Source: an uncultured Spirochaetota bacterium
GTDB lineage: Bacteria > Spirochaetota > Brevinematia > Brevinematales > JAOACQ01
Reading direction: 5' to 3'
DNA length: 64,000 nt
Assembly: GCA_963783575.1 (NCBI GenBank)
Contig: CAWAOD010000015.1
Location: 32,001-96,000, forward strand
Positions 1-24,300 of the stretch are shown here, in pieces (position 1 is the first letter of the stretch; every line of letters begins with the position of its first letter). A program made the position numbers and the translations under genes. The notes under the pieces are model-generated. The model did not search any database. It was not told where the DNA came from and saw nothing but the letters and a program-made list of their open reading frames with translations.

Positions 1-180
1 AGCTTCATATAGGCCAAAGCCAGGAATATCGACAAGGGATTTTGAAAGGTTGCCCTGCGGATCGGCGTCAATAACCAGCGTTTTGTGCCCCATTGCCGCC
101 AGCCAGATCGAAAGGTTGAAGGTTAAAGTTGTTTTACCAACGCCGCCCTTTTGGTTGGATAATACGATTGTTTTTGACAT
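1..180 (-). CDS. parA: ParA/Soj-family ATPase, 5' part only (runs off window)
   Basis: Manual translation from ATG at 180: [46 protein letters not shown], with deviant Walker A (KGGVGKTT) and DADPQGN motif. Confidence 0.9.
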
Positions 181-190
181 AGCCAGCCCC

Positions 191-466
191 CTAATTGGAT
201 TCGGGGGCTTTGAGACGCATTTCTTTCTTCACATTTCCCAACAATGCGTTTAAATGAACGTAAGCCCGGCGGAAATCCAGAAGATTAACCGTAGCCTGGC
301 CGTTGAAGTATTCAATCTGCGCCTGAGTTAGACCTTCGCCTGTGAAGGTAAATTTTCCGGCTGGCTTTTTGGCTTCTCTGGCAAGTTCGACTTTTTCAAC
401 CGAATAGCCGAGGCAGATATAATACCCGGCCTCGTAATAATCCGAAGTGATTAAGGTTTGCAACAT
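191..466 (-). CDS. Small phage/mobile-element-type hypothetical protein (DUF5659-like)
   Basis: 91 aa ORF, strong RBS AGGAGG, directly upstream of par[14 protein letters not shown]-terminus resembles small phage proteins (family assignment tentative). Confidence 0.6.
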
Positions 467-508
467 GTTCTCCTCCTTAATATTTCGGAGGAAAACGCCT
501 CGAATGGA

Positions 509-537
509 TTGATTAAAGCTTCAGCTTATGCTATAAT
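509..537 (+). promoter_or_regulatory. sigma70-type promoter
   Basis: TTGATT-17 bp-TATAAT with extended TG. Confidence 0.65.
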
Positions 538-543
538 AACTTA

Positions 544-619
544 GGTAAGTTTCGAGGAGTTTTCCTCACTTATGGCTCTGCTTTCAACTTGTCTAGGGCG
601 GAAAGCAGGGCTTTTCTTT
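544..619 (+). ncRNA. Putative ~75-nt antisense sRNA opposite the leader of the leftward operon
   Basis: Promoter 509-537 followed by terminator-like stem gctctgctttc(575-585)/gaaagcagggc(601-611) plus T-rich tract; no ORF. Confidence 0.45.
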
Positions 620-718
620 ATCTCTAAAGATTTTAAAAACAGGCTTTTTAAGCTTGTTTTTTTAAGCAAAATACATTCATATATACACTTATTATGTTTG
701 TTACATTAATTATATATT

Positions 719-1447
719 ATGGGTAAATTTTTGTCAAGCACAATTTTAAAAAGAAGAAAAAGAAATACTTACTTGATTGGTAAAAACTTTAAAGAACTTA
801 GAAAAAATGAAGGATTTACACTTGAAGTCTTGTCCAATAAGACCAAAATTCATATTGAACCATTAAAGCAATATGAAAGTAATCTATACTCACCAAACCT
901 AAATAATCTTAATAAGCTCTCTAATTTCTATGGTGTTTCTATCGATTTTCTTATCCTATGGGACAAAACTAATTACATCAGAAGTACCAGGTTAATTGAA
1001 CTGTCGAAAATTATTGACAAACTCGACCAGGTGAAACGGTTTCAAGTTGAATCCACAGCCATGACCCTTATAGGAGATAAGATTTCCAACGTTTTCGTTA
1101 AAGAAGATTCTTTTGATTTGACCAATGATATACATTTAAACCTGAAACAGCTTCGGGAGAGCAGTAAAGTTTCACAAAATAATATTGCTGATTATCTAAA
1201 CATTTCTCAAGGCTTGGTAGCAAACTATGAACGAATAACTATCCCTCCACTGGATAATTTAATCAAGCTTGCAGAGTTCTTCAGTGTGTCCATTCATTCT
1301 TTGGTTACAGGAGAAAATCTGACTTTTCAGTTAGCTAACAATGGATTGAAAGATTCCGTCTTGAAAGCAGACCAGTTGCTTAGTATCAAAGATAAAAGTT
1401 TTCTCATTCTTTTGATGGATAAAATTATCATGGAAACAAAAACCTGA
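719..1447 (+). CDS. XRE-family regulator with two tandem HTH_3 domains
   Basis: Two repeats of the pattern LK.LR....SQ..IA..L.IS......YE....P....L.KLA.FF.VS. Confidence 0.85.
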   Translation: MGKFLSSTILKRRKRNTYLIGKNFKELRKNEGFTLEVLSNKTKIHIEPLKQYESNLYSPNLNNLNKLSNFYGVSIDFLILWDKTNYIRSTRLIELSKIIDKLDQVKRFQVESTAMTLIGDKISNVFVKEDSFDLTNDIHLNLKQLRESSKVSQNNIADYLNISQGLVANYERITIPPLDNLIKLAEFFSVSIHSLVTGENLTFQLANNGLKDSVLKADQLLSIKDKSFLILLMDKIIMETKT

Positions 1448-1629
1448 TAACTTTATCGTCCCCAAATAAACAAAAGCATTGAAATTAAAGAATAGCTTCT
1501 TGTCCCGACATTCGGCTCTCGTCGGGCACCCTTGAAATCTCCGGCGCGTTCACCGTCCTCACACTGCCTGCGCTTTCAACGGTGCCACTCCTCAAGCCGC
1601 CGGTTTTTCCGGTGCGCCACTCGCCTCTC

Positions 1630-1657
1630 TCTTAACATAATTTGCCTTATCGTCAAG
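1630..1657 (-). promoter_or_regulatory. Xer dif-like site, 6-bp central region
   Basis: Minus strand CTTGACGATAA-GGCAAA-TTATGTTAAGA; right arm matches the XerD arm TTATGTTAAAT. Confidence 0.65.
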
Positions 1658-1761
1658 CAAGCGACACAATCGCACTGAATATACCGATTTTGATTTTTTA
1701 AACAATAAGCTTCTGAATTTCCTGTCTTTCCTTCATCCCGAAGGCTCAATGGCTGCAAACG

Positions 1762-1790
1762 CCTGCCGCTAAGGCTAAATTATGTTAAGT
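1762..1790 (+). promoter_or_regulatory. Xer dif-like site, 7-bp central region
   Basis: CCTGCCGCTAA-GGCTAAA-TTATGTTAAGT. Confidence 0.6.
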
Positions 1791-2229
1791 TGTCTCAGTT
1801 CTACTTTTTTAAAGCTTTATCCTTTCCGGTTCTTTCATCATTAGGTTCTGAGCCAAACGTTCGGCGGCGCCACACCGGAAAAACCGGGCTGGCGCTTCGG
1901 CGACAGACTGCGCCATGTCCCACCCGCCCATACGTCCGCCTTTAGCCTGTGCCATCATCAAGCCCCTTTCGGACTCCCATCTTCGGTTATCAAAAAACTG
2001 GAATTTAAAGATCTTTCTTTTTCAGATCCACCCAGCCATGAATATTATACCATTCAATCAAGAATTATCAAGGGTAAAGTCGCTGGCCCGCTCCCGGATT
2101 CTGCGGAATCCGCCCTTGACAATTCTTGCTTTCGCTGGTTTTGCGGTTAGGCTGGGCGGATATTAATTAATAAAACTAAAGTAATTTTTATATTATTCGA
2201 CATATATTATAAAAAAAGAGGTTAACTCT

Positions 2230-3048
2230 ATGAATCACAAGAGAATTCAAATTCTGAATATCTACTCCAGACAAAAAAAATCTTCAAATAATATTTTATC
2301 TGATGTAATAACTATAACATTAATTACTTTGATATTCTCTATCGTATTTTATTCATATGAAATAGGTTATGCCGACTATTTTGGTTACAATTATTCATTA
2401 ATAAAAGTAACACTTTTTGGAAGAATACTTTCAATTTTTTCTTTGTCATTGTATTCTAATTTTACCGTTATTATTGTTCTCATTTTTACCATTATTATAT
2501 TATTATATGCACGTATGCTATCACCAAAAAAGGTTATTCCGTATAAGACAAAAGTTAAAATATTAATTCCAATTTTACTATTGTCAATTAAATACTTAAT
2601 TATACCCCCCGTTATGTTTCTGCTCATTAAATATCTCGTATCTGATAAACATCTTGTCTCTTTTAATTACATAATTGTTCCAATATATGTGATTCTTCTC
2701 TTAATTAATATCCAAAAATATTTTAAAGTATTAGACAGATTTAAAAATATAAGTTCTTTTTTTATAGATACATTAAATGATTATGGAAGTATATTCACCA
2801 ATTATATTTATATCTCAATATTTTTGATTTGTATGTCCTATTCTGCAGGTTATAATTACGCTAAAAACAAGAAAATTTTTGAATCTTACGATAATGGAAC
2901 GAACCTAATAATTAATCATTACAATGATTATTCTATTGTTAATTCCAGAATAAATGTATTAAATACTAATAAGGTATATTTTTTCCTTAAAAATGAAGAT
3001 TTAACGAATAAGTATATAACAAATGTTTCTATTACGAATACCAATTAA
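2230..3048 (+). CDS. Hypothetical multi-pass membrane protein (very AT-rich cargo gene)
   Basis: 272 aa ORF with about 5 hydrophobic segments; far lower GC than its flanks. Confidence 0.7.
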   Translation: MNHKRIQILNIYSRQKKSSNNILSDVITITLITLIFSIVFYSYEIGYADYFGYNYSLIKVTLFGRILSIFSLSLYSNFTVIIVLIFTIIILLYARMLSPKKVIPYKTKVKILIPILLLSIKYLIIPPVMFLLIKYLVSDKHLVSFNYIIVPIYVILLLINIQKYFKVLDRFKNISSFFIDTLNDYGSIFTNYIYISIFLICMSYSAGYNYAKNKKIFESYDNGTNLIINHYNDYSIVNSRINVLNTNKVYFFLKNEDLTNKYITNVSITNTN

Positions 3049-3359
3049 CAAACCCCCAGTAATCAACAACACCAGCGACAGGCAGAAAAATCAAGGATGA
3101 GCGCATCAGCGCGAACGACGACAGGAGCTTGTCCTTGATTTTTCTGAATGGAGCGGTATAATTCTTTTTACTGGGGGTTTTTAAATGATCGGTGCTTTAT
3201 CTTGATTTGATTTCCCGGGAGCCGAACGGCACTTGATAGAATAAAAAAAACCTCGCCGGCGCACGGGCGGGTCGGGGCCAGCGACAAAACTTGATGACGG
3301 CGCCAGCCCTGTTTTTAGCGCCGCGCCTTTGCCTCTACCCCGCTTTTACACCCCGGCAA

Positions 3360-3388
3360 AGTTAACATAAGTTCCGCTTATGGGCTGT
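3360..3388 (-). promoter_or_regulatory. Xer dif-like site, 7-bp central region
   Basis: Minus strand ACAGCCCATAA-GCGGAAC-TTATGTTAACT. Confidence 0.6.
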
Positions 3389-3490
3389 AATTCCTTCCAC
3401 TGAGCCGTTTTAATAACCGTAAAAGCTGATTTAAGTTTAATAAGAATTGAAAATATATGGCTTCAGAATCGACGCGATTTACTCCCCTGC

Positions 3491-3518
3491 ACAGACCATA
3501 AGCGGACTTATGTTAAAG
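3491..3518 (+). promoter_or_regulatory. Xer dif-like site, 6-bp central region
   Basis: ACAGACCATAA-GCGGAC-TTATGTTAAAG, canonical 11-6-11 layout. Confidence 0.7.
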
Positions 3519-3974
3519 CAAGCGGCGGGGATCAGGCTTTGCCTGTCCACGCAAAAACAGGCGGTTTGACGAACCCGCTGTAGCGAACGTAGGCGGTGCT
3601 GACAGCCGGAAGCGCGCCGCAGTGAACGGAAGCGGGTGAGGAAAGCCGAGCTGGCTTTCTACAGCCTCCATGCCCCCGACTCCGCGACAATACTGCATAT
3701 AGCGGCTCTTATTCCGCTTTGCATATATACCCAAACCCGCTCAAAAAACACATGAGATGTTTTGGATATATACTCAAAGCATTCATTTCCTTTTCAGGTT
3801 AGAAAATATTAAATATATACTTAATGTTTTAAACTCTTTACATATATAGCTAAAACTGTTATCTGCCGAGGGGAAAATAACTTCTCTCGGATATATCTAA
3901 AGAAGACACACCTTCTACAGCTCCACCCAACAAAAAAAGCCTCAAGCTTCTTCTGCCTACAGGGCTTGTTAAAA

Positions 3975-4844
3975 TCATTTCTCTATGCTATATCTGTATA
4001 CATCCTTCCTTGTCATTCCAAATACCACATAGGAACTGTCCGACTTCCAGTTAAAAAAATACGATGCCAGAGAAGCATTGTTTGTCAATGTCCTTAAAAC
4101 CTTCTGCTTTTGAAGGTCTATGAAATATAAGAGATTTTGTTTATCTTGGCAGATCACTGTCCTTTCATCAGGCGAAATCGTGAAATAGTCCATAAACACG
4201 GTCACATCTACAGGCAATTTCACTTTCTCAAACTTTTTCTGACTGATGGAATAGCGGTAAATTTTCGATTCTTCCGGACCGTCCAGAAAATTCTGATTAT
4301 TCAACAAGTAAATTAAGTCCGGATTCTTTACTGCTATAGGTAGAAAATACCATTCTTTTGAACTATATAGCTGTTCATTGCTTCCCGTGGTAATATCAAA
4401 TTGATATAGCTTATGGACTTCTTTATCCCCTTTACCTTCCATTGCATCATAATATATTCTTTTTGAATCATAAGACCAGCAATAATAATTATGTTTTGTG
4501 GCTATAACGGAAATTATTTGATAATTGCTACTATTAATAATTTCAAGGCGTTTATTGCTATATTTTGTAAGATATAAACCATCTGGACTCATTTCATTAT
4601 ACCTATTGCTATCATTTTCAAATACAACTACATTTGTTATATAATAACCAGCATTATGATAAATCACATCATCTTTTGTTAATAATTGTTTAATAAGTAA
4701 GCTATCATTTTTACTGTCAATAATTAGCCCCCATAATTCACCTTCATCAAATTTGTAGATTCTTTCAAGTTTGTCTAATCCAAATAAATATGAAAAATTA
4801 AAAATGCTCATAACCAAAATGATGATATAAATTTTTCTTTTCAT
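3975..4844 (-). CDS. Secreted TolB-like beta-propeller protein, putative Rhs immunity protein
   Basis: Signal peptide; SPDG, WSYDS, ISPDE, WKSDS blade motifs; 10 bp downstream of the Rhs stop. Confidence 0.6.
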   Translation of the reverse strand: MKRKIYIIILVMSIFNFSYLFGLDKLERIYKFDEGELWGLIIDSKNDSLLIKQLLTKDDVIYHNAGYYITNVVVFENDSNRYNEMSPDGLYLTKYSNKRLEIINSSNYQIISVIATKHNYYCWSYDSKRIYYDAMEGKGDKEVHKLYQFDITTGSNEQLYSSKEWYFLPIAVKNPDLIYLLNNQNFLDGPEESKIYRYSISQKKFEKVKLPVDVTVFMDYFTISPDERTVICQDKQNLLYFIDLQKQKVLRTLTNNASLASYFFNWKSDSSYVVFGMTRKDVYRYSIEK

Positions 4845-4854
4845 AAATTCTCCA

Positions 4855-7800
4855 TTATTTAGAAAAATAATAAGTTAAGTCCGGTATTACCGAAGTTCTA
4901 AATCCGTAGTTTAATGTACCGTTAGGAGTTAAATTATTTAGTATATTGTCTCTCCCTTGCTGAGCTATTGCCGGTGCATAATAATCTTCTTCTTGGTAAG
5001 TAACATAAACACCTTTTCCTGGAGCTAATAAAGCCATATGATTATCATTTGCTACATAGACCAGTTGTCCATGATTTGCCATTTCCTGAACATCATATCC
5101 TTGGTTTGCATCCATAGTTCCATATGAATTATCTGTAAAATACTTTGTCGCATACGGTACACCCCAATGACCTACGGTTTCCAAATCTGAATTTCCGGTA
5201 TATAGCTTGGTTACATAAGATGCGTAACGATCGCAATAAGTCTGGGTTTTTGTTTCAATTGATGGAAAGATTCCAACCCAGACTAATTTTGAAGTAGTGG
5301 TAGGATTGAAAGCCGGGTTATCATACGCAATTCTTTCTGTGAAGTAAAGTCTTTCCGCATCAGTCATGTTATGATCGTCAGCAAAATCTTTAATACTATC
5401 ATAAGTCAAGCTATTAAAAGGTATTTTGCCATTTTTGTATTGATTCTTAAACTCTTGAAATGCATCATTTACTTTATTAAGACTTTCCTGACCATGCCAA
5501 GAAGTATCCCTATAATTTGTTGGATTATCTGTATAATTCGGGTTTATCGGAGCATTATAATCATTTGCGTAATTTACTGAACCTGTAATTGGATTTATAT
5601 TAGCTCCATAATCATTCGCATAATTGCCGGTATGCAAAGATGTTGCTTCTATACTTGGAGTATTCCCCGCTACTGAACTGGGGGGAGAAATGGGGGTTTG
5701 ATTATTAAATTCCGCTGCTACTTCCGGTGTTGCCGGTACAGGATTGGATAAATTATATTCCATAGCATCCATAAGGTTCTTATAATACTCCAACTCTCGT
5801 TCCAGATTAACATCATCTCCTAGTTTGTTCATAATAATTTTAGCCGGGTCAAAATAAAAATTGCTGTTCAATGAACCGACCCGCTGTCCGTCAAGATACC
5901 CAGAGGTTGCACTGGCCTGCAATCCCGCGTAATCGGTAAATCCATACCCTATATTAGCGTTTTCGGTTCTGCCGCGGTAGTTTCCATTTTTGTCGTAATA
6001 CCAGTCCATGCCGGCACCGATATCAAACCCCTGGTTATACCCGGTCTGCTGGTTATAGCCGTAGCTTAATCCAAAACCGTAATTCATTCCCTCGTATTCT
6101 CCATACTCTCCATAATTCCACTGAGCGTGCAATCCGATATTGGCTCCGTTTGACGTTATCCCTGCGTTTGTCCCGATATATTCACTCTGAGATTTCCACA
6201 TTCTGTCATATTCATCGCCGTTCAGGCTGCGTTCCATTGTTCCGCCGAAACTTAAACCTGCTCCTACCTGTAGATATTTAGGGTCTCCTATTCCTATCCC
6301 GGCATTGACATTCCAGTTGAAAGTTTCCGTACGGTATGTATAAGAATGCTTAAAATCAACTCCGCCGCCGAAATAAACAGGAGCTCCGATAGGAGCAAGG
6401 TTCACTTCTAAAGACGAGCCTTCTTCTATATAATATCCTTCATTCTTAGACTTCCCGTATCCATATTTTACAAACCCTAAGTCTATACCGATGAATTCTT
6501 CATAATTAGGATTAACCTGTTCATTTACATAGTTATAACAATCTAGAGAAACTCCTTGATAGCTTGAATCCTTTGCTTCGAACATCGCTCCCACAGCATT
6601 TGACATCACATCATCGCCGAGAGCTGTGGATGATACCTGTCCCATTGATGCGCCCATGAAAAGGCTGCTTATTATATCTTCGCCGTAAGGGTCCCAGAAA
6701 GTCATTGGATTGTTAAGCCCATAAACATACCAGTTCAACCCCGCCGGCCCATATCGTTTATCCGGGTCTTGAATGGGGTCCTGGGTGATAAACCGGCCTG
6801 TGGAAGGGTCAAGGAATCTTGCCCTTGCATAATACAATTTGGATTCACTGTCAAAATAATGCCCGGTGTAACTTATCCCTTCTTTCACTGAGGAGGAGGA
6901 GGAGTTCGTCTCCCCCTCTCCAGACTTGGATAGGGGGCCGGGGTTTGAGGCTATTTGTTCCCCGAAAGCTGTATAGTCGTATGTCTGATAAGAAAATGAA
7001 TGCGTGTTAATAGTGATAGGCGAGTCATAGAGTTCGCCTCTGACTGATCCCTGGGCATCTTTCAGGTAGACAGACGTCTTAACCGAAATCTCCGCCTCAT
7101 AGCTGTTGATCATTATGTTATTCAAATAGAATGTCGAATCATCAAAGAGAATATTCTGCCCGTCATATACAAACCTTATTGCGGGTTGATCAATGCTTCC
7201 TGCCGCGTCCGATGTTTCGTTCTTGGATATCCGCAGGTTATTGACATCGTAAACATTCTTTGTTATTGTAGTATTCCCGTTTTCTAAAAGGTTATACTCC
7301 GTCATCAAATCCCTGGAGTCATACTTGAACCTCTCCGTCTTCCCGGAGCCGTCCTTCTTAACCAGCCTCCCCGCCCGGTCGTATGTATACGAAACACTCC
7401 CCTTAGTGGATTGTTCGAGCATAAGCCTGTTATCGTTGTCATAGGTATAATGGGTAATGTTATTGCAAGCCGAAGGCGTAGCAATCTGATTGGTCGGTGT
7501 GGAATAAAAGCTGGTTGTCTTAACCAATCTGTTCCCGCATGCATCGTAAGAAAAAACCTCGCTGTTGCTCAGACCGTAATTCGCAGAAACCAGCCTGTAT
7601 GTCTTATCATATTGGAATGTGGAGACACACAATTGTGCGCCTGCCTCACTTACCGTCTCCTTAGTCCTATTGCCTACCTTATCGTAGGTGTAGCCATAGC
7701 TCGATAAAAACTGAACCTGTGCTGAGCTGGTATACTGAGCCTGTCGAAGTGCTGACGAAGCATTTGTGGTATTTGATATTGAAGTAAGCCTATATATATT

Positions 7801-13800: not shown

Positions 13801-16092
13801 TAAGCTGTTCTGCATATCCTGGATCTGCTGATTCAGGTATTCCACCTGAAGGTTGTAATAATCTTCAGAATAATTATACGTCTTTGAATATTGATAATTT
13901 GCTGACTGTAAAATAGTTAGCCAGTTTATTATACTATTTGTCATTTGCTGGTATTCGGCAAGAGTGTTTATTTGATTTGTTTGATTATTAATAAGATTGG
14001 AATTATATTGATCCCAGGATAGTATACCTTTATCATATTCGAATTTTAAATAATACTGCCTTACTTGATTGTATATGGAAAGAGCATAGGGGTAGCCTGC
14101 AGGAGTATTATTTGTCGCCAAAAAACCATAAACCGCGTTTGAGATATCGCTTAAATTTAATTTTAAATTCGTTGATTGCCCTGAGAGTTCGCTTTTGTAT
14201 TTATTAATATTTGAAATATTTATATTTATATTAGATATACCTTTTAACAGTTCATTTTTATTGCTTATCATCGTATTAGTCATAGCGACCAGGTTTGATG
14301 AATTTGGGTCGCAGGCAAGAACATTGCTGTAATTAAATGTGTATTTAAGAGAGCTGCCGTCAATTGTAAGGTTCAGGCGTTCCAGATTCCGGTTTTCACC
14401 GGTAAATGTAAGGTCAGCCCTATTCGATTTATCTATTGCAATGCTATTGATCAGGTTTCTCTCCGAATCACTTTCATTCTGCTCTTCATTCCTCTGAAAA
14501 TCCACTTCATCCACCTGGGTGCCGCCGGGGGAAAATGTTTTGACGGTTATAAGTTTCTGGAATGAGTTATAATCATAGGTTTTGTAAGCCCCGAAACGGT
14601 TGTAATTTGTCTGAAGCGCATATCCCGCATAAATATCAGGCGTACCCGGGGTGCTTCTTCTGAAAGAATGTATCTTTCCGTCCGCTGTATAGTAGCTGAC
14701 GCTCCACCCAAAGGTAGTATTGTCCGAAAGCCATTTACGGATATCCGAAATAAAATCGTTTGTATTGATAAGCAATGTATTCCTGTTTATTGAATTTGTC
14801 AGGAAAGCTGTATTTACCAATGATGCGGCGGCGTCCCCGAACAGCCCTTTGGTTATATTGGTTCCATTGTTTGTTTCAAAAATGTTTGTTATATAACCTT
14901 CCTGTTTAAAACCATATGTAACATTTGTATAAGGTCCGCCTTGATTTGTAAGAATACTGGTTGTTGATTCCCATACTTCATTTGGACTATAATTTGTAAC
15001 AGTATGCTTTGCTAAATCCGGGCAGATGGTATATCCGTAAATATTGTTAGTAGAACTTGCAATATTGGTAATCACTTCATTTACAGAATTTTCCCCGCTG
15101 TTCAGAAATCCTCCGAATTTCAGAATATCCCCCGCGGAGGTTACAACTACTATCACGCTGTCCTGTGTTCCGAACGCCCCGAAAATCCTGATATCACTGA
15201 AATATCCGCCGTCCGTCGTATCGCCCTTCCTGATAAACTGGTTGCTTGAATTCGCGATCATTTTGTAATAATCATACATTCTGGGAGGACCCCCGAATAA
15301 ATGCATAAATGCCGCCATAGTGGCCGCTGAATCAGCTTCGCTTTGCCCGATATACTGGAACTTCTGCGAAACCCCGCTTCCGTCCTGAATGATCACCTCG
15401 TTCTTCTCAAAACTGTACCAGAAGGAATAGTTTTCAGTTAAAAACCATCCAGGCCCCATACCAACATTGCCTGAATATTGTGAACCGTACCTCGCGGAAA
15501 GCTGTATCGGTATCAGGTGGTCATTCCCCACAGGAGTCCGGTAGATCAGAATATTTTTAGACAATTCGCCTGTTACCGGATCGACAAAATCCCCATAAAA
15601 CCCTTTTTCTATCCTGTGCAGTTCGTCCTGGCAGGAATTCCCATAATACTTCGCCGGGTCGCCGAGCTTAAGTTTTATTCCTTCCTGCGATTCCTTCTGA
15701 AAATTCGCAGGATTGGGTACTTCATTGTCCAGAATCCCTTCAATAGCCGTAGGATCTGCATCCTGGCCGGCGCTGAATGCGTAATACCTCTGCAGATGGT
15801 ATTTTTTATAATACATATCCTGGAATGTATTAAGCGCCTTTTCCGTCTCATTATTCCAGAAACCGCTTTCATCTATAGGATTATAATTTGTCAGATTAAA
15901 TGAAAGGACCTTATTCAGTTTTTTCTGAATCCCTTTCAAGCTCTCACTGTATAAATAAGGATTTTTATCATCGTTTTTCTGAACAATATCAATTTTATTC
16001 CGCGTTACGACAAGGCAGAGATTGCTTCCCGCCCATATAAGCGCCAATAATGTAAAAAATAAAAACAAGGTTATTACAACTTTCCTCATCAT
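4855..16092 (-). CDS. Giant RHS/YD-repeat polymorphic toxin with Sec signal peptide, PG-binding-like N-terminal domain and ~600 aa C-terminal extension
   Basis: Dozens of YD..G repeats; Rhs core YTGHYFDSESKLYYARARFLDPSTGRFITQDP...NWYVYGLNNPMTFWDPYGE; GGAGG RBS favours ATG at 16092 (MMRKVVITLFLFF) over 16116. Confidence 0.92.
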   Translation of the reverse strand: MMRKVVITLFLFFTLLALIWAGSNLCLVVTRNKIDIVQKNDDKNPYLYSESLKGIQKKLNKVLSFNLTNYNPIDESGFWNNETEKALNTFQDMYYKKYHLQRYYAFSAGQDADPTAIEGILDNEVPNPANFQKESQEGIKLKLGDPAKYYGNSCQDELHRIEKGFYGDFVDPVTGELSKNILIYRTPVGNDHLIPIQLSARYGSQYSGNVGMGPGWFLTENYSFWYSFEKNEVIIQDGSGVSQKFQYIGQSEADSAATMAAFMHLFGGPPRMYDYYKMIANSSNQFIRKGDTTDGGYFSDIRIFGAFGTQDSVIVVVTSAGDILKFGGFLNSGENSVNEVITNIASSTNNIYGYTICPDLAKHTVTNYSPNEVWESTTSILTNQGGPYTNVTYGFKQEGYITNIFETNNGTNITKGLFGDAAASLVNTAFLTNSINRNTLLINTNDFISDIRKWLSDNTTFGWSVSYYTADGKIHSFRRSTPGTPDIYAGYALQTNYNRFGAYKTYDYNSFQKLITVKTFSPGGTQVDEVDFQRNEEQNESDSERNLINSIAIDKSNRADLTFTGENRNLERLNLTIDGSSLKYTFNYSNVLACDPNSSNLVAMTNTMISNKNELLKGISNININISNINKYKSELSGQSTNLKLNLSDISNAVYGFLATNNTPAGYPYALSIYNQVRQYYLKFEYDKGILSWDQYNSNLINNQTNQINTLAEYQQMTNSIINWLTILQSANYQYSKTYNYSEDYYNLQVEYLNQQIQDMQNSLKEIDLQIMDYNAGRMFSWIALLNSSSEFDGNVYRNSSYTYFDYTNTNTNEFNVTNIESRYRAVSVHTPYWVGTFDYTPGNTFFTNLNGNGFKFRYDNTLTNYDDRRVTYIRYPNLSEVSISYDEKGNMTYFTNELTNAYSYIYDEFGNVTNKTVPGLRWKYEYSDTTAKYLGRPTKIVQPDKTEFHMSYDTNGELTSQGFYRSGGKLLYNLATIIFNYQEGGGYTKTSTDMYGCQTTYVCDKDHNLAKIINPDNGVYLYQNDIYGKVLTENRADLVTNFYQYDARGNVISQGIQGCSTNRAAYDAWGEKTAVTDPNGNTTRFYYDYCGRLSKVSFPNNNEVNYWYDTNGNKTQESYDKDGKKKIVYKYDVNDRQTEKDLDQENHSYAYSYSYDVAGNLTNQKMTGRGFNSPAVIISSNVADISYAYNGIGLLTNQTDTNSGKSVSYVYDLMGRMTSETAILSNESYVKVYTYDGLGRNTSLSVGYGSGNITASTLFSSNTYFTNHGMEKIDRYTNRSTNYSDFRNNVTNLIYSVFNPASNGMVIYSHSYNYDNLGNKINEIYPDGTKQDWEYKYGNRLYRESARYRIPGGSPAYKTYSYDLAGHITNMKDFETNNWIKTYNSMGFVSGETDPAGRSASYEYDIFGNPMVVRQGSRTKNVEYNLLNKPISEINDDGANQTTNLVYYDALGNPGLIAPGGNGSFITLKAFDAEGRQILEIDPNGLKTVLTYNAMGGLETKTIIDTNTGISRSWTYQYDECGRITNEEQPDNTSISYGYTLTYNNVPVKTKSWGSRVEMYYYDQMDRVIKTVITDPTILNNTGYNYYHSRGIISGTIFNTAGLPEEEIQPDGGTNLYAYSAEGKVTSETNPLMQVKTTAYDKNGLMTNMTDFDGNKYNYVYDGSGKIIQEINPDNGTTAYNYDAFGNIARKVLPENETYSYEYSLKNRVARETNPLSGVTAYGYNALGQVTNINAPGGNLTAFYYNNGVLQEIHRSGNDSGHDFITTFNVDAFGETNLVNNPDNGATIFGYDNLGRMIWKAAGPFVTSAGSAQAPLVTNGLTVYNYSYTAEGYLSSVIYPNGMVETNLYSQGGLLTNKYFITNTTKCRETFYKYTDDSGAYYNGKPAVTWNFKGITNSFKYDALGRVTNASESAGIGSSRAVNYNYSIITYSSENFTQITTWKTVNGNGAGQAEWTQEVRDFRGNTVEVWKNLNAGNPVKVINNSYNKSGKITDEKRYFTPDPDISGETTNSYNSGGMLQQKIDPSGLTTTFSYDNAGRVLQKNEGGRITGYQYYNNGNLMRIITGNSLRDEKYEYDFRGNVTNKINNLSHTSNLTYFDIYGNKTAECIIYNGTVSGRNWVYDQMGRVVSATNELGGTVVYRYDMLGEKTNEIAAPSALNGGAGLALTNNYVYDAMGNLTGKSESGSTLSNGQLAAVQYATSNMYDCWGNITNTIYPDSSRESSAYDTWGRKISETDRFGYTTSYLYDYYGRETGRTEETPFGALNISNTYDFAGRITFESRNDGSTKYINSTNIYDNSGNIIRQILFNRNVNNIEKYFGYDVYGNKTSEIDYNGNTAYTYYDDLNRPVRQIDREGNLVNISYTYAADGSYIVTTSQNDMNYQAAISSSITYDGFGNKIQITDANHNTENYIYNLMGKVLTATDKNGFTNYFRYDSLGRLTASIDPYGGTNSNIYDSFGNAVTTVDKENNQLAREFDWAGRMVRSTDAMTNRASFQYSIAPLDTILLTQNHSGSGLKCEVEVFTDAESNQTTTYRYGKQTIAVKDALNNTTSYNYDTFGNMTAAIDAKGNRTTLEYDIRGNKVKETTALGFTTEYQYDNNGNIILEKNGEGSISTSYNRNNQPVSKTYSDNNVKHFQYDGLGRLTWAGDNFSAYRYKYDSAGNLTNRYDEKNGETLAYEYDGNGNRTRMVTIPSIQFSAGAENHSGTGGKTVVYKYDGLNQISLETAVSTNTTNLQISYSYSSMGRITNKQYSTGLTVNYGYDNIYRLTSISNTTNASSALRQAQYTSSAQVQFLSSYGYTYDKVGNRTKETVSEAGAQLCVSTFQYDKTYRLVSANYGLSNSEVFSYDACGNRLVKTTSFYSTPTNQIATPSACNNITHYTYDNDNRLMLEQSTKGSVSYTYDRAGRLVKKDGSGKTERFKYDSRDLMTEYNLLENGNTTITKNVYDVNNLRISKNETSDAAGSIDQPAIRFVYDGQNILFDDSTFYLNNIMINSYEAEISVKTSVYLKDAQGSVRGELYDSPITINTHSFSYQTYDYTAFGEQIASNPGPLSKSGEGETNSSSSSVKEGISYTGHYFDSESKLYYARARFLDPSTGRFITQDPIQDPDKRYGPAGLNWYVYGLNNPMTFWDPYGEDIISSLFMGASMGQVSSTALGDDVMSNAVGAMFEAKDSSYQGVSLDCYNYVNEQVNPNYEEFIGIDLGFVKYGYGKSKNEGYYIEEGSSLEVNLAPIGAPVYFGGGVDFKHSYTYRTETFNWNVNAGIGIGDPKYLQVGAGLSFGGTMERSLNGDEYDRMWKSQSEYIGTNAGITSNGANIGLHAQWNYGEYGEYEGMNYGFGLSYGYNQQTGYNQGFDIGAGMDWYYDKNGNYRGRTENANIGYGFTDYAGLQASATSGYLDGQRVGSLNSNFYFDPAKIIMNKLGDDVNLERELEYYKNLMDAMEYNLSNPVPATPEVAAEFNNQTPISPPSSVAGNTPSIEATSLHTGNYANDYGANINPITGSVNYANDYNAPINPNYTDNPTNYRDTSWHGQESLNKVNDAFQEFKNQYKNGKIPFNSLTYDSIKDFADDHNMTDAERLYFTERIAYDNPAFNPTTTSKLVWVGIFPSIETKTQTYCDRYASYVTKLYTGNSDLETVGHWGVPYATKYFTDNSYGTMDANQGYDVQEMANHGQLVYVANDNHMALLAPGKGVYVTYQEEDYYAPAIAQQGRDNILNNLTPNGTLNYGFRTSVIPDLTYYFSK

Positions 16093-16109
16093 CTCTGATT
16101 CCTCCGGCA

Positions 16110-16151
16110 GCCTCATCCTCCTGCCCCCTTCTCCACTCGCGAAGAAGGAGG
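16110..16151. repeat. Degenerate REP-like palindrome
   Basis: gcctcatcctcctgcccccttctccactcgcgaagaaggagg, decayed copy of 17605-17647. Confidence 0.7.
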
Positions 16152-16158
16152 TTGAAGA

Positions 16159-16453
16159 TTAAATATTTTTGATTTTATTAATAACAGCTTTAATATTATC
16201 CATAATCTCTTCATTTTTTATGCGAACAACTTTTACACCCATGTTTTTCATAATATAATCCCTGAATTCATCATATAGTCTAATATTTTCTATCATATAA
16301 TTTGATAACTTAATACTAGTTATCCAAGTAGAATCTGCTCTATAACCTCCCCTCCTGCGGAGGGGAAAATACTACCCATAACTTCTTCCCACAATTTTGA
16401 TTCCGCTTTTGTTTGGTTTATTCTCAATCTCTCGCTTATTCTGTATAATTCAT
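16159..16453 (-). pseudogene. Decayed DUF559 endonuclease paralog
   Basis: Starts ATGAATTATACAGAA and then hits a stop; retains KAESKLWEEV and GVKVVRIKNEEIMDNIKAVINKIKNI*, matching 17653-17997; middle altered, with a palindrome at ~16346-16366. Confidence 0.8.
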
Positions 16454-16472
16454 ATACTTTCCTTCCCTCCCG

Positions 16473-16555
16473 CTCCCCTCTCCGCACTTTGGAGAGAGAG
16501 CCTGTCCTGAGTACCCCAGCTCGGCTGGGGATGTCGAAGGAGGCCGGGGGTGAGG
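16473..16555. repeat. REP-like palindrome carrying a nested second palindromic insert
   Basis: ctcccctctcc...ggagagagag[cctgtcctgagtaccccagctcggctggggatgtcgaagg]aggccgggggtgagg. Confidence 0.7.
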
Positions 16556-17581
16556 TTAAAAATCCACGCTCATAACACTGCTTATCCCTTCGAGGTCAGT
16601 TCCGTTAAAAGACATAAAACCGTCTTCTTTTTTCCAAACTCCATTGCCTGCTTTAATCCAGAGACAACCGTTTTCATCCAGCTTCCATTCCCCGAGTTTA
16701 ACATAGTCCTCAAAATGGTAATACTTATGCCTGTTATATTTATTCATTTTCCACACAATCCGACCTTTCTGTTTGCCGGCTAATATATTTCCGTCATATT
16801 TGCCGTTGGTTGTAAATTCCAGGTTAACCGTAAGATTGGATTCCTTTACTATCATCTCAATATTCTTGACATCCACACCAAGCAAGTCCCAGCGTCTTGC
16901 GTATATTTCCGCCCCCCCTCTATAAGTAACTTCACGAACAAAGTAATACATATTGGCAATCCATCCAAGCTGTTCATCCCGGTATCCCTGTATAAACTTC
17001 TTTTTTACATCATCAATATTCGTTATTGAGTATTTCTTTCCCCCGTTCCAGAACTCAATCCCGCTTAAAGCCGCCAGGCCATCATTATACCCCGAATAAA
17101 CTGAAAGCACTTCAAATCTCCATTTTAAAGCCTCGACAGGCCTGTCCGTATTAAAAACCTGATTTTCAGCCGTATCGTTCAAAATTATGCTGCCGTTGGT
17201 AATTTCGTTTGTGACATCTATTCCATTCGAAATTTTCTTTTCGGATGTAATAACCCTGATTTCCTTAATATAAAGATAATTTGTATTGGAAATATTCCCA
17301 TTTTTAATAACTATCTCATCCACCGGGTATGTATCTTTAAAATAAACATCAAAAGCCGGATATTCATTTGTGTTTTTTGCCGAAAAATAAATTAAAGACG
17401 GTGTATCATCATTTTCATCCAGTAAATTTAATGCCGTGCTTTTAAACAGGTCATTTGTATCATAAATGGACCAAATTTTACCTCTCCACAGCCCATAATT
17501 ATCCTCAATATTCAGCTCGAGGCTATGAGAAAGGCCCGATGTAATTATCATAATCACAAAAACAATAACTTTTTTCTTCAT
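16556..17581 (-). CDS. Secreted protein with discoidin-like (NADase-type glycan-binding) domain
   Basis: Signal peptide MKKKVIVFVIMIITSGLSHS; motifs NLLDENDDT, EIVIKNG, LNDTAENQ, FEVLSVYSG...LSGIEF; start moved from 17611 (inside a REP) to 17581. Confidence 0.65.
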   Translation of the reverse strand: MKKKVIVFVIMIITSGLSHSLELNIEDNYGLWRGKIWSIYDTNDLFKSTALNLLDENDDTPSLIYFSAKNTNEYPAFDVYFKDTYPVDEIVIKNGNISNTNYLYIKEIRVITSEKKISNGIDVTNEITNGSIILNDTAENQVFNTDRPVEALKWRFEVLSVYSGYNDGLAALSGIEFWNGGKKYSITNIDDVKKKFIQGYRDEQLGWIANMYYFVREVTYRGGAEIYARRWDLLGVDVKNIEMIVKESNLTVNLEFTTNGKYDGNILAGKQKGRIVWKMNKYNRHKYYHFEDYVKLGEWKLDENGCLWIKAGNGVWKKEDGFMSFNGTDLEGISSVMSVDF

Positions 17582-18385: not shown

Positions 18386-21300
18386 CCCCCCCCCTCAGGA
18401 GACACATAATTAGAAGTAAGAGTTTGGAAAACATGTAAAGTGCCGGTAACATTATTGAGAGGTGTATCTCCTGGAGTAATGCTTATAGAGCCACCGCTGC
18501 ATGAATACAAGCACCACGGTGCCTTCCTATCCACAATATACATCTGGCTGTTTGTAGCCGCGACTCCGAAATTATTTGTAGCAACAACTATGACATTATT
18601 GCTCATCCAGCTTCCGGCAGCACAGCTCAAATTAATGATATATCTGCCGACTGCTGGAGTTGTTCCCCAATCAGGACTGGCATTAATTCCATACAAATAA
18701 CTAATATTTGTTCCATAACCACGAATACTTTTAATCCCGGCCGGATCACTAACATTTACAAAGATTTGATAATTGTTACTGCTCCCAAGCCATCCATCAC
18801 CACAGGGTACAAGCGAAGATAGATTATTGAAAGTGATATTTGGCTGTTGTGAGTCGTAATAACAATAACCAAGTTTATAAGGAATGCTGTTGATATTTTC
18901 TAAAGAATCTTCTGCTATTACTTCTAAATATCTGGTATTCGTGTCATTAAAAGTTGAAAGTGGGAATTCAAAGTCATTACTTGTAGGATTTGAATCTATA
19001 TAAAGTTGAGCTTGATTATTTGTAATACAAATGTACTTAATTCCAGCATCATCGCTGATATGAATTTTAACTTTTCTATTATCATTATTAGGCGATAAAT
19101 ATTTATTACCCCCATATAACCAATAAGAACTTGCAAAATCCAGTTGAACAGGATTATTAATGTTTGATGCTCCCGAAACATCAACGCTATCTTTATTAAA
19201 CGTCACCACCGGCCCTGTATTATCAAAATAGAACTGGAAATTATTATTACTAGTATTTCCGGCAACATCAACGGCCGTAACGTATGCAGTATATTGCCCG
19301 TCGCCATTAGTGCATTCTGATTTAATAGCCAGTTGAATAGAATTCCCGGAATCTGCATACGTGTTGCTTGTATTATTGGATAGAACCCAGAAGACGCTGC
19401 GCATACCGCTTAAAGCATCATTCGCTATTATGTTGAGATTACCCGAATTGACGCGTTCACCGTATGTCATATTGCTGAAAGTTATTGATGGAGGGGTTTT
19501 ATCGATCACAAAACTATTTGTAACATTGCTGATGTTTCCGGCCATATCTATAGCATTGACTATAAGCATATTTGTCGCTTCATTAGTAAGATAAAATGAG
19601 GCTGTGCCCGAACCATTTATGCTCTGGATACGGATTCCATTTGTATAAATTTCATTCGAGCATCCTGAAATGTAAAGGTATGGATCGGTTATCGAGATGC
19701 TAACCGTAATATTTGTATTAACCGGGACACTCGGTACGCCGCTGATGCTTATATCAGGTGTGTTTGTATCAATGATAATAATAAAATTGGTACTGTTCGT
19801 ATTACAAGCCTTATTCCAGGCGGTTATCGTGACAGCATTTGTCCCTAAATTTGAAATATGAATTGGATTCAAAGTCACAGTACCCGATGCTAAATTTCCG
19901 TTACTCAATAAAATGTTATTATTTGATAATATAAAATGTATTTCATTGTTATTATTTTGAATAGAATTTGTTATTTTTATACCTATATCAACAGGACAGA
20001 AATTATAATAATTTAAAATGCTTTGTAATGTTGTTATGAATGGCGCGGTTTTATCGATATAATTTGTAATAATCATAAAGTTTGTATTACCGGCTTTATC
20101 CTGAGCGTAAATGGACAGAACATGCATTCCACTATTTGTATATGAGATTGTTATCAAGTTCGACGCGCTTGTATTCGACGAAATTGCTATATTTTCATTA
20201 GTATTTGTAATAGCATAATATAACATATTAACATCGGTTAAAGCTATAGTGACGGTTATATTTGTATTAATCCACTGATCATTCATGATTCCGCTAACAT
20301 TTATAACCGGCGGTATCGTATCAATCGTAAAACTTGAGTTGGTATTAGTACTATTTCCGGCCCTGTCCATCGATCTGACATTAATATGATATATTCCGTC
20401 CGCTAAAGCAGTCATCGATATATTTGTAAAGTTAGTTCCATAATTGGTAATTCCAGATAAAAGAGCGGATTGATTGCTTAAGAGAATTATTTGATTGCTT
20501 GGATGCAGATCATAATTAGAAACTGTTATGTTACCGATTGATTTTGCCGTAGCATTGTAATAACCACCCGTACTTATATACAAAGGATTATAAACTATAA
20601 AATTTGTCGGCGCCGTGCGGTCGATGGAGAAATAAATATATACATTCGTGTTAGTATTGGTGTTCATAGCATAATCGATTGCCACGGTCTTTATTGAATA
20701 GTCCCCTTCATTTGATAAAAAACTAAAGGAATTAGTTGATGAAACTGTTTGTCCGACATTGCCGTTCGAATATTGTATATTAGTATTTGTTATATTATTG
20801 CTGAGAATGGTAATTTGATAGAATTTCAAATTATCGTCGGTAATAATAATGGAGGAAGTAATGTTTGTTACACACATATTATTTGTAAAATTCAGCATAT
20901 TGACAACCGGAGGTGTTCCGTCAATAATGATCATATTGCTCATGTTAGTATTAGTTGAGATGTCAGCCTGGTTTCCAGCGAGGTCTTTCGCCGAAATAAA
21001 GATCGGGTACTTGCCGTCGCCGGCCGCGGTCCCCGCGAAGTAAATATTGGTCTGGTTGGTCGAACTGTTTGTTATCTTCAGGGTGTTAGAAATCGACACC
21101 TTGCTGATGTCCAGGTTCAAGTCTTCTATATAGCCGAAAAAGTCCACCCTATTATTACCGAAAAAATATGAAATCCCATTATTTTTAAAATAGTAACTCC
21201 GGTTTGTGGCGTTAAATTGAATATCCGGCTGTGTGTAGTCCATGGTAAATTGAATGTTGCTATTAACTTTCCTGTTCAGTACATCGACAGCGCTGACGGA

Positions 21301-24300
21301 TAGATAATAAATGCCGTCATCGCGAGTGTTCGAAATAAGAAAATTGGTCGATTCGAAGAAGTTATATCCTGACATCACGGAATTCGTAAAAATAATACTG
21401 CCGTTATCCCTGGAAAGATTGACACTGTAATTGCTTAGATGATCGGAAATATTCACATAAACATCTTTACGGGTATTGTAGTATTGGCCGTTCGTAACTT
21501 TACTGACAGCGATGGCAGGAGGTACGCTGTCAATTGTAAAATCAAAGGCGTTAGTTAATAAATACATCTCGCTTTGTGCCCTCGCCTGGGCGTTTATATC
21601 CACATGATAATCCCCGTCATTGGCAATGCTGCAAGCCAGCCCGTTCGTAATATTGAAGGTTTCTCCCGTTCCGCCGTTACTGATAGTTATGATAAGGAAT
21701 TCTTGCGTTCCGTTCGTAACAAAAGCATTGAAATGCATGGTTTCGTTTGTGTAATACACACCCTTCGACAATACGCAACCGTCCATCCCGAAGTAAGCCA
21801 GGCCGGGAAGAGTATCGGAAATCCAGAAGATTATATTGGTAGACGCCGTATTTCCCGCCATATCCGTGGCAAACGCTTGAAAATTATGCTTCCCGGTATT
21901 GGTGATGGGCGTATTGTAATAGTTAACACCGTCCAGTTTCATTTCAAAGTTGCTTGTATGACTGTCGGACATTGCCGCTATATTCTCAATATTTGTAAAA
22001 TAGGTTTCGTTGTTTTCCACATTCAATGTAATCACCGGGGGAGTCCTGTCGATACTGAAAAGGTTGGTAGCCGCCGAGGTATTCCCGGCCATATCGGCGG
22101 CAGAAACGGCAAGCTGGTAATCCCCTTCGTTTGTTATGAGAGTATTTGTGTCGAAAGCCGCGCCGTTAAGGTAAAACGTATAGTTTGACAGCGCCATATC
22201 GCTGACGGTGATTGCCGGTTTAACCTGGTAATACACCCCGCCGGACGCATTAAAGCCGATCTGCGGAGGAGTCCGGTCATAATAAAAGTTCGCGCTGTAA
22301 AGATTGGTATTCCCGGCTTTGTCCGCGGCCATTATGCTGAGAGTGTGGCTTCCGTCGGACAGGGCCTGGTTATTCCATGGAATTCCATCTATAGTGATAA
22401 TGTTTGTATCGGGATAAATCTCGCTCACGCTGATATCCGGAATATTCGAATAATAACCGCCGTTGGTTATTCCGCAAGAAATCCGGGGCGGCGTGAAATC
22501 GAACACAAAAAGTATATTTGTGGAATTTGTATTCCCGGCCTTATCAGCCGCGATTACGCCGATGACGTTGCTTCCGGAACCGGTAACCGTTCCCGTAAGC
22601 GATACAGGATTACCGTTGAGGATTGCCGATGCACTCAAGATATTATCATCAGCGGCCTGGATCGTATACTGAATAGCCTGGTTATAAAAGGCGCCGTTCC
22701 GCAATCCGCTGACCGTGATTACAGGCTTTACAGTATCAATGGTAAATTGCAGAGCCCGGTTTGCTGTCCTCCCAAGTATATCGGTACAGCTTACTGTCAG
22801 GGTATAATGCCCGTCCGGGGCCAGTGGGAACGAATCCTGCATGGCGTTTCCGTTTAATACGGCCGATTTATTTTTTATCATTCCCTGGTAAATAATGGAA
22901 ATGTTCCTGGGTGTGTTATAGAAAGAGCCGTCGGAAACATCATTAATAGTAAATGACGGCTGGGTCCTGTCTATTTTTAATGTAACGCTTTTTGAAATGT
23001 TATATGCCATACTGTTAAGCTGTGCCGTCGCGTACACATCAATCCTGTAATTCCCGTCATCGGTAATGTTGACGGAGTTGCCGGAATCTTTCCCATTGAC
23101 ATAAATGCTCATGGACTCTAATGTCCCGTTCGAGACGGCAGGGCTTACCTGTAAGGAGTTTGATGTGTAGTAAGTGTTGTCATCAGGATTGTAAACACAG
23201 TTCTTTAGGTTATCCATAGATATTAACGGCGTATTGTCCGCGATCTGGAAGGTTATATCCGTCGACGATGTATTGTTTGCCCGGTCGGCTGCAGTAACGC
23301 TTAAAACATGCTGGCCGTCTGTCATTATTCCCCTTCCGTTATAAGGCGAATGGTCCAGGTAAACCGATAAAGTGTTTGTATGCGCGTCTTCCGCGGATAC
23401 ATAAATCACCATATTGGTAAGATAGGTATTCCCTGTACCGACATTCGCCAGTATCTGCGGCGGAGTCCGGTCGATCGAAAACATATCCGTAACCGCGGTT
23501 TGATTTCCGGCTCTATCCATTGCCTCAACCGAAAGGCTGTAATCGCCTTCTTTAATCATAGCCGTATTGGTATCATATGAATATCCGTTCAGATAAAACG
23601 CGCAGTTGGACAGAGACATGTCTGTCACTGTGATCCCTGGTTTTAACTCGTAATAAACTCCGCTACCGGGTGTAATCGTAACAACAGGGGGATTTTTGTC
23701 AAAATAAAAGTCCGAGGAATAATAATTGGTATTTCCCGCTTTATCCCTTGCCGTTATGGTAATGTTATGCGGCCCGTCGGATAATTCCTGATAAGACCAG
23801 TCGGTATTGTCGATCTTCACGGAGCTTGAATCAAGGTATGTATCATTGACCTGGATTCCCGGTATGGAAGAATAATACTGCCCCTGTAAAAGATTACAGG
23901 TAATTGACGGCGGGGTAAAATCAAAGATGAAGGAAATATTGGTATCGGTTCTATTCCCCGCCTTATCCACCGCGGTTACTGAAATTGTATTGCTCCCGGG
24001 GTTTGAAAGATTACCGCTTAAAGAAACCGCCTGCCCGTTCAGATAAGCCTGTATGCTCTGAAGCGCCGGGTCATCTGCCGTAATGGAATATGAGATAGCT
24101 TTATTATAAAAGGCGCCGTCTGATAATCCGCCGAATGTCACAACCGGCCTCGCGGTATCGATTGTAAAATGAACGGTGTTACTCGCCTGCCTGCCTAAAA
24201 TATCCATGCAGTCAGCCTGAATGGTATAATCTCCTGAATTCACAAGGGTAAGAACATCGGGCGCATTCGTTCCGTTCAGAAGAATTTCTTTACTTTTAAT

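Follow-up and report, generated by a model that had tools for sequence, protein, structure and literature searches.

An inverted pair of composite hairpin elements inside tandem primase-recombinase units at Rhs toxin genes of an uncultured Spirochaetota bacterium

Introduction

A 64,000-nucleotide stretch of DNA from an uncultured Spirochaetota bacterium (below, the window; G000:C15:32001-96000, where G000 is the source genome and C15, C5 and C14 are its contigs) carries near its left end two inverted structured elements that enclose a single AT-rich gene and lie next to a full-length Rhs toxin gene. A first-pass annotation took these elements for the ends or attachment units of a non-autonomous cassette moving the enclosed gene. 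Here we ask what the pair is made of, and whether it belongs to the enclosed gene or to something larger. We find that it is a selected composite DNA structure, combining two known kinds of part in an arrangement that we did not find described, and that it lies inside a tandem unit with a primase and two tyrosine recombinases, which appears to integrate within rhs.

Results

The inverted pair

The reverse complement of positions 1500-2161 aligns co-linearly with positions 3050-3690, hence the copies are in inverted orientation; the global alignment score is 308, compared to 118 +/- 15 (maximum 158) in 300 dinucleotide shuffles. By a stringent local score the separation is bare (29 versus a maximum of 28 in 500 shuffles), because the similarity between the left (L) and right (R) copies is spread across short motifs. 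Both copies fold strongly as DNA (z-scores -6.8 for R and -7.7 for L, 20 shuffles per copy), with the stems reported at the first pass located as claimed, at 1600/1879 and 3308/3553, and each consists of two conserved hairpins, A and B, joined together (Table 1). The guanine-cytosine (GC) content of the elements is 50% and 51%, versus 23% in the enclosed open reading frame (ORF).

Thus, the inverted co-linear pair noticed at the first pass is confirmed, and the claim that its structure is under selection is supported by the compensated stems in A and B described below. A covariance-model search of Rfam over window positions 1-5000 yielded no family near the cut-off that could explain the copies, only three chance matches (E 1.5-4). 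Folding as single-stranded DNA, also proposed in that annotation, is likely, and we consider it highly probable that the pair acts as folded DNA.

Table 1. Features of the left part of the window. Positions are those of the window; aa, amino acids.
Feature	Position	Strand	Remarks
Left copy L	1500..2164	-	A hairpin, linker, B hairpin within long stem, 3' module; alignment, fold
Right copy R	3047..3690	+	alignment, fold
A hairpin of L	2018..2164	-	-35-like hexamer 2066-2071 paired, 16-nt spacer, TATAAT 2044-2049 unpaired
A hairpin of R	3047..3188	+	-35-like hexamer 3135-3140; -10 TATAAT 3157-3162
B site 1 of L	1762..1790	-	XerD-like arm, 7-nt core, XerC-like arm; host dif candidate has the same XerD arm (11/11)
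B site 2 of L	1630..1657	-	XerC-like arm, 6-nt core, XerD-like arm; one bulged base when paired with site 1
B site 1 of R	3360..3388	+	7-nt core
B site 2 of R	3491..3518	+	6-nt core
AT-rich (23% GC) membrane-protein-like ORF, 272 aa	2230..3048	+	inserted at the A-A junction; no homologue found
5' part of parA	1..180	-	operon runs on left of the window
91-aa gene	191..466	-	conserved upstream of parA in units; no family
Tandem XRE/HTH regulator of the unit	719..1447	+
Putative immunity gene	3975..4844	-	weak beta-propeller matches; 66% identical to the copy in the next unit
Full-length Rhs gene, 3753 aa	4855..16116	-	tip 84% identical to the orphan tip of the next unit
Putative attachment core inside rhs	5662..5684	-	start of homology with two related orphan tips

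Module A, a promoter-like hairpin

Module A is a hairpin of about 145 nt, in which 28 of 41 consensus pairs show two-sided change among 15 copies. Its 3' arm holds a putative promoter near the sigma70 consensus in these 15 copies: a -35-like hexamer lies in the stem and is followed by a 16-nt spacer (14/15) and a TATAAT-like -10 hexamer, the latter being less paired than the -35 hexamer in 14 of the 15. A covariance model of A recovered the held-out copies at C5:8306, in G216 and in G032; the G216 copy had E 3e-5 among the fetched loci, yet was missed in the whole-genome class search. The copy in G032, a genome of another family, adjoins a related primase-two-recombinase module. At L241:11111-11250 (G032:C42) the unit with the A-type hairpin has a repeated two-gene block on its flanks in place of toxin tips.

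The A copies form eight divergent pairs, five in G000 and three in G285, a genome of the same genus (loci L005/L006 cover the same stretches of G285 and were counted once). In seven of the eight the hairpins abut, being 4-13 bp apart and enclosing no gene; the exception is the pair of the window. A solo full-length copy lies in G216 (L032:12985-13790, G216:C2), head-to-head with a 126-aa gene that had no usable Atlas match; the surrounding island contains a phage-like integrase and restriction-like genes, and no primase unit is nearby.

Some single-strand origins, e.g. the M13 minus origin, are primed by RNA polymerase. The Frpo/ssi single-stranded promoters are long hairpins holding both the -35 and the -10 (bioRxiv 10.1101/2023.02.15.528439). 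Compared to the available portion of that description, A is likewise a stem-loop with both hexamers, as in the Frpo/ssi/sso group, but its -10 is in an open bubble, the spacer is 16 nt, the copies stand back to back, and neither a leading region with an origin of transfer (oriT) and relaxase nor a Rep was found among the scanned unit proteins. The IncQ strand-displacement origin comprises two inverted hairpin priming signals, ssiA and ssiB, on opposite strands beside a primase and a helicase. The A-A pair is similar in that inverted hairpins on opposite strands lie beside a primase and a helicase-like gene; it differs by the sigma70 hexamers in the hairpins and by the Xer hairpins that follow, and no iteron array was seen, although none was sought.

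Module B, paired dif-like sites

Module B contains two dif-like sites in inverted orientation, with spacers of 103 nt and 101 nt (as cut) in the window. Thirteen intact inverted site pairs were observed in G000, G285 and G216, and twelve of them were aligned (G17b_R was left out). In this alignment 95.6% of cells are paired, and the covariation is 0.266, compared to 0.079 in shuffled alignments (0/500) and at most 0.089 when slid, although the kinship of the sequences may inflate this value. There are four types of the 6-nt core, each pairing solely with its own 7-nt partners, with one base bulged (12/12 rows).

The host dif candidate is a single-copy 28-mer near a GC-skew change (C14:285668-285691); it is likely the chromosomal dif of the lineage. 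Of 35 genomes of the order, 22 contain it as a single copy, and it was not found in the 12 searched genomes of family f3. The XerD arms of the B sites match it in 8-11 of 11 positions and the XerC arms in 5-7 of 11. The core base beside the XerC arm is that of dif in 28/28 sites, compared to 15/28 for the base beside the XerD arm, this being one base in kin sequences. The host XerD scores above its family cut-off, and XerC slightly below. Hence the suggestion of XerCD-type sites made at the first pass is supported, as the sites mimic the host dif, and we predict with reasonable confidence that B binds host XerCD. A dif-like inverted pair is also present in the units of Shigella, E. coli, Lonsdalea and G100 considered below; the enterobacterial ones resemble E. 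coli dif and are situated at another position in the unit.

The attP(+) site of CTXphi comprises two inverted XerC/XerD site pairs folding into one stem (PMC3442271, PMC6744903), and its dif likeness is on the XerC side of the overlap, not on the XerD side (PMC3442271). As far as the available portions of these papers describe attP(+), B shares both features: two inverted XerC/XerD site pairs form one stem, and the homology to dif is next to the XerC cut rather than the XerD cut. Unlike CTXphi, each unit has two such hairpins, on opposite strands; the cores are 7 and 6 nt long with one bulged base; and the unit is not located at dif, has two recombinases of its own and no HUH Rep among the scanned proteins.

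An alternative is that the pair is a captured intergenic region of the IMEX (integrative mobile element exploiting Xer) type, i.e. a single-strand origin plus attP(+), which would be used when the unit or a helper becomes single-stranded during transfer in trans, for second-strand restart and fallback integration at dif, and would have no part in circle replication. The mimicry of dif with its XerC-side identity agrees with this, as do the solo copy in G216, whose island has another integrase and lacks a primase module nearby, and the position of the enterobacterial dif-like pair elsewhere in the unit. However, the neighbours of the host dif candidate are ordinary chromosomal genes, and no element adjoins it; dif is unoccupied, therefore the element is not itself an IMEX. 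No copy of the elements was found by blastn in plasmid and phage collections, and none of the 14 matches in a viral pattern scan passed the paired-site test or gave a significant profile match. Moreover, one attP would suffice, yet the copies occur as inverted pairs. We regard this capture as unlikely.

The tandem unit and its junction inside rhs

The structured pair is part of a tandem unit of 11-20 kb, which forms arrays in C15:1-36 kb and C5:1-36 kb; G285 carries the same arrays. The starts of C15 and C5 overlap at only 77% and are too diverged to be called one array. The order in the unit is a divergent XRE gene, the 91-aa gene, ParA, a primase-ATPase, two tyrosine recombinases, toxin-antitoxin genes, an orphan Rhs tip, an immunity gene and the structured pair. 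The primase (908-937 aa) combines CHC2-Toprim with a C-terminal P-loop domain, and both recombinases carry the catalytic motifs. Left of the window, where the first-pass annotation had proposed to look for a tyrosine recombinase and a primase, the operon indeed contains the primase-ATPase (926 aa) and the recombinases (426 and 339 aa), as well as a PIN gene and an orphan Rhs tip with its immunity gene.

Each of the seven orphan tips examined (five in G000, two in L005/L006) opens with an element-end motif, common to all of them, and then a short core. In the full-length rhs of the window, the core and the sequence after it are present, but the element-end motif is absent. The core pattern occurs six times in the genome, every time at a unit junction. 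From this we infer that the unit integrates within rhs, that the tip and the immunity gene travel along with it, and that the structured pair is internal.

Some further observations concern the units and their surroundings. In homologues of the primase, the C-terminal domain (L001:14629-16119, minus strand) corresponds to Pfam PF27228; at least 758 homologues of this domain exist. A 50%-identical recombinase carries the label Brevinematales, which suggests a spirochaete. Two C5 units encode apparently identical recombinase and toxin-antitoxin proteins (G000:C5:2715-5966 and 14322-17573) and differ in their Rhs tips; this sequence comparison suggests a recent duplication of these units. A repeat resembling an insertion sequence (80% to L005:1-1083) has about 30 copies in G000 and breaks several contig ends.

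Cargo genes

For the ORF between the copies, a homologue search returned only itself, nothing was found in Pfam, PADLOC or PHROGs, and Atlas gave weak neighbours only, with low recognition. No clean target duplication flanks it. Several other copies carry cargo between A and B, in antisense orientation with respect to the element. At G000:C15:16097-17872 and 20415-22339 this cargo includes a HATPase/restriction-enzyme-like gene (PADLOC REase_II, E 1e-18) and a radical SAM gene. Group II introns, whose reverse transcriptases pass TIGR04416, are also present inside elements (G000:C15 at ~19851 and ~15839; C5 at ~21846 and ~19481-21500), the insertion points being right after the A hairpin (twice, the same intron), within the site 1 XerD arm, and at the passage from the linker to B.

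If the copies were the ends or attachment units of a cassette, as the first-pass annotation held, a foreign 23%-GC ORF between them would be expected to be such cargo, and the A-B cargo in several units, the mosaic modules and the solo copy in G216 could be read in the same way. This is not borne out by the other pairs, seven of the eight being empty, nor by the flanks of the ORF. The significant copies in G000 (4.9 Mb) are confined to the two arrays, that is, they all lie within tandem units, and the boundary of the unit is a different sequence inside rhs. Neither is the element dispersed in the manner of insertion sequences or miniature inverted-repeat transposable elements, as its significant copies in G000 are found only in the arrays and there is no clean target duplication at the cargo. 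Thus, a cassette for the enclosed gene is very unlikely.

The cargo also bears on the possibility that the A promoter, acting on double-stranded DNA, transcribes the copies into structured regulatory RNAs. The near-consensus sigma70 promoter in 15 copies is in line with it, as is the excess of G-T over A-C pairs in the elements (37 vs 16), the sense strand folding better as RNA in 12 of 15 copies. However, the G-T preference also fits single-stranded DNA, as the sense strand also folds better as DNA in 10 of 15; the promoter is situated in the 3' arm of A, so A itself cannot be transcribed from it; and the invariant letters of B are those of a DNA recombinase site. The first-pass option of a long non-coding RNA is disfavoured because up to several kilobases of antisense cargo and introns split A from B in several copies. 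We give the RNA explanation little credence.

Integron attC sites are folded single-stranded recombination sites with an extrahelical base, found near captured genes and targeted by group II introns. B resembles them in being predicted to act as a folded single-stranded site with an extrahelical base, with captured genes and group II introns near. Unlike in integrons, the recombinases are Xer-like (114 and 117 bits, compared to the IntI cut-off of 265 bits), and the sites form inverted pairs, one pair per unit, rather than a direct array.

Rearranged interiors

Inversion between the copies, another supposition of the first-pass annotation, has left signs. When C15 unit 3 is compared to G285 C11, both having cargo-free pairs, the outer flanks are co-linear, and the interior is inverted from site 1 to site 1. 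The copy C5a_L is a mosaic, its 5' part being 91% like C15u3_L and its loop and 3' part 83-96% like C5b_L. The rearrangements may be few, old events. In the single DNA contig set examined, no inversion joint was present among the joints listed.

Such inversions, together with the two divergent promoters in the centre, could point to an invertible promoter switch on double-stranded DNA, in which cruciform-extruded sites would flip the A promoters and the cargo between the immunity and the XRE sides. However, the arrangement is nearly symmetric, so that a flip alters little, and there are at least three arrangements with different breaks, which are possibly old single events. Ordinary duplex Xer exchange is blocked by differing cores, and the cores of L and R do differ. 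Such a switch seems to us highly improbable.

Related units in other bacteria

Matches to the primase at E <= 1e-40 were found in 20 of 301 genomes of the phylum, and matches covering at least 80% of it in 30 of 72,556 plasmid records. Five of the inspected plasmid records (n = 7) contain XRE-primase-recombinase units, either located behind a large gene (Rhs, haemagglutinin/CdiA-like or FG-GAP) or alternating in tandem with toxin tips and immunity genes. The remaining two records are circular (8.8 and 11.3 kb), have the content of a unit, an untyped replicon, and are non-mobilizable; they may be excised circles or collapsed repeats.

The hairpin region of the Shigella unit is present in 57 of 5,426 complete E. 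coli genomes, at a median of 4 places, all chromosomal, and the one E. coli genome inspected has a tandem array behind vgrG-rhs. There (L287, NZ_CP051765.1, 2.39-2.42 Mb) tandem SymE-XRE-primase-XerC units carry orphan Rhs tips. The 8.8-kb circular record, which is from Shigella, corresponds in content to a single unit and is 99% identical over 8.7 kb to one unit of an E. coli array. A sharp onset of homology between orphan and full-length genes was also seen in E. coli and Aureispira (two of five loci tested); at the Enterobacter, Pseudomonas and Janthinobacterium loci such homology was not detected. Overall, units of this kind are found after Rhs and CdiA-type genes in several phyla.

In G216:C4 (L233-L234), an inverted repeat several hundred bases long, which surrounds a small gene pair, is common to two divergent primase-two-recombinase-Rhs-tip units. 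The scripted detectors missed the dif-like pairs noted by eye in G268, G175 and Enterobacter, and one in G283 was recovered by an earlier script only; all are leads only, and a dif-pair pattern match in G219 was not counted.

Discussion

Based on the observed gene order, junction motif, compensated stems, likeness to dif and rearranged interiors, we propose the following chain of events. The two tyrosine recombinases of the unit would catalyse its excision and its integration, both at the core within rhs, so that an incoming copy would provide Rhs with a new tip and immunity gene, the old tip being left as an orphan. The short stretch separating the back-to-back A hairpins would be where the excised circle is opened; there each A, with its duplex -35 and open -10, would prime its own strand toward its 5' side. 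The result would be two-way strand-displacement copying, assisted by the primase-ATPase. This geometry would leave each B single-stranded on its better-folding strand, and XerC could then exchange one strand pair with another dif-like site, so that the interior would be inverted or reshuffled and cargo genes trapped. For the whole chain, that is, a tip-swapping element with a circle primed at the A-A pair and with B as a substrate of host XerCD, we consider the chances to be about even.

Several observations weigh against this chain. The sequences compared are kin, hence their counts depend on one another. Among the unit proteins scanned, neither a recognised Rep/HUH nor a relaxase was found (the score of the TraI model is 18 versus 930 bits), and a helicase role of the C-terminal domain of the primase rests on a Walker A-like motif and a match to MCM5 at E 0.085. 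In a public contig, a joint 12,401 bases back, compared to 12,395 between the attachment cores, has low depth and falls within 41 letters that the immunity genes have in common rather than at the attachment core; it may be an assembly artefact. C15 unit 2 has a third arrangement; because its breaks lie outside B, homologous recombination between inverted repeats also acts. Finally, the 6-nt core is matched to the 7-nt core even across a break, for which single-strand exchange alone does not account, selection or hairpin-templated repair being options.

The distribution of the modules points in the same direction. The A model detected its hairpin in one of 17 primase-positive genomes, and a dif-like pair was detected at 4 of 28 module loci, compared to 0 of 160 control loci. 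The controls were generic tyrosine recombinases (24-40% identity) from recombinase-alignment scans of metagenome and viral contigs, and this detector had been loosened after a stricter version gave 1/27 versus 1/160; in G000 the loosened version matches 7 times within the arrays (74 kb) and 8 times in the remaining 4.84 Mb. Because most related units thus have no detectable A or B-like pair, the A/B pair is not a universal origin of these units.

A wider generalization, which we advance tentatively and hold to be rather less probable than the chain itself, concerns a class of integrative elements found across phyla (XRE, a CHC2-Toprim primase with a P-loop domain, one or two Xer-like recombinases, toxin-antitoxin). 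Such elements would replace toxin tips and immunity genes site-specifically inside polymorphic toxin genes, and in the lineage considered here the circle would replicate from twin hairpins primed by RNA polymerase, while host XerCD acting on folded strands would invert the interior and capture genes.

Arrays of orphan rhs-CT/cdiA-CT (C-terminal) modules with immunity genes are described downstream of full-length toxin genes, with a SymE gene among them (PMC11278526). As in the available part of that description, orphan tips and immunity genes here follow a full-length toxin gene; unlike there, every orphan is preceded by a primase-recombinase unit, and the junction motif is common to them. The available text of PMC11278526 mentions no primase, xerC or toprim, hence no such unit. 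The available part of PMC5131962 has no description of the unit either; that of PMC8138268 mentions neither primase nor Rhs, and the mentions in that of PMC4428218 are unrelated. In the literature covered, mostly open-access main texts, we found no published description of the unit or of the pair, and this result is provisional.

An element with its own recombinases that keeps selected CTXphi-like substrates for host Xer and promoter-like bubbles points to a single-stranded stage, without a recognised Rep or relaxase. The origin and replacement of orphan Rhs/CdiA tips are usually credited to homologous recombination or left open. The junction motif in the toxin gene, the primase-recombinase unit, the one-unit circular record and the 57 complete E. 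coli genomes together make a site-specific mechanism testable in E. coli. If true, it would mean that there is a dedicated machine behind orphan rhs/cdiA tips.

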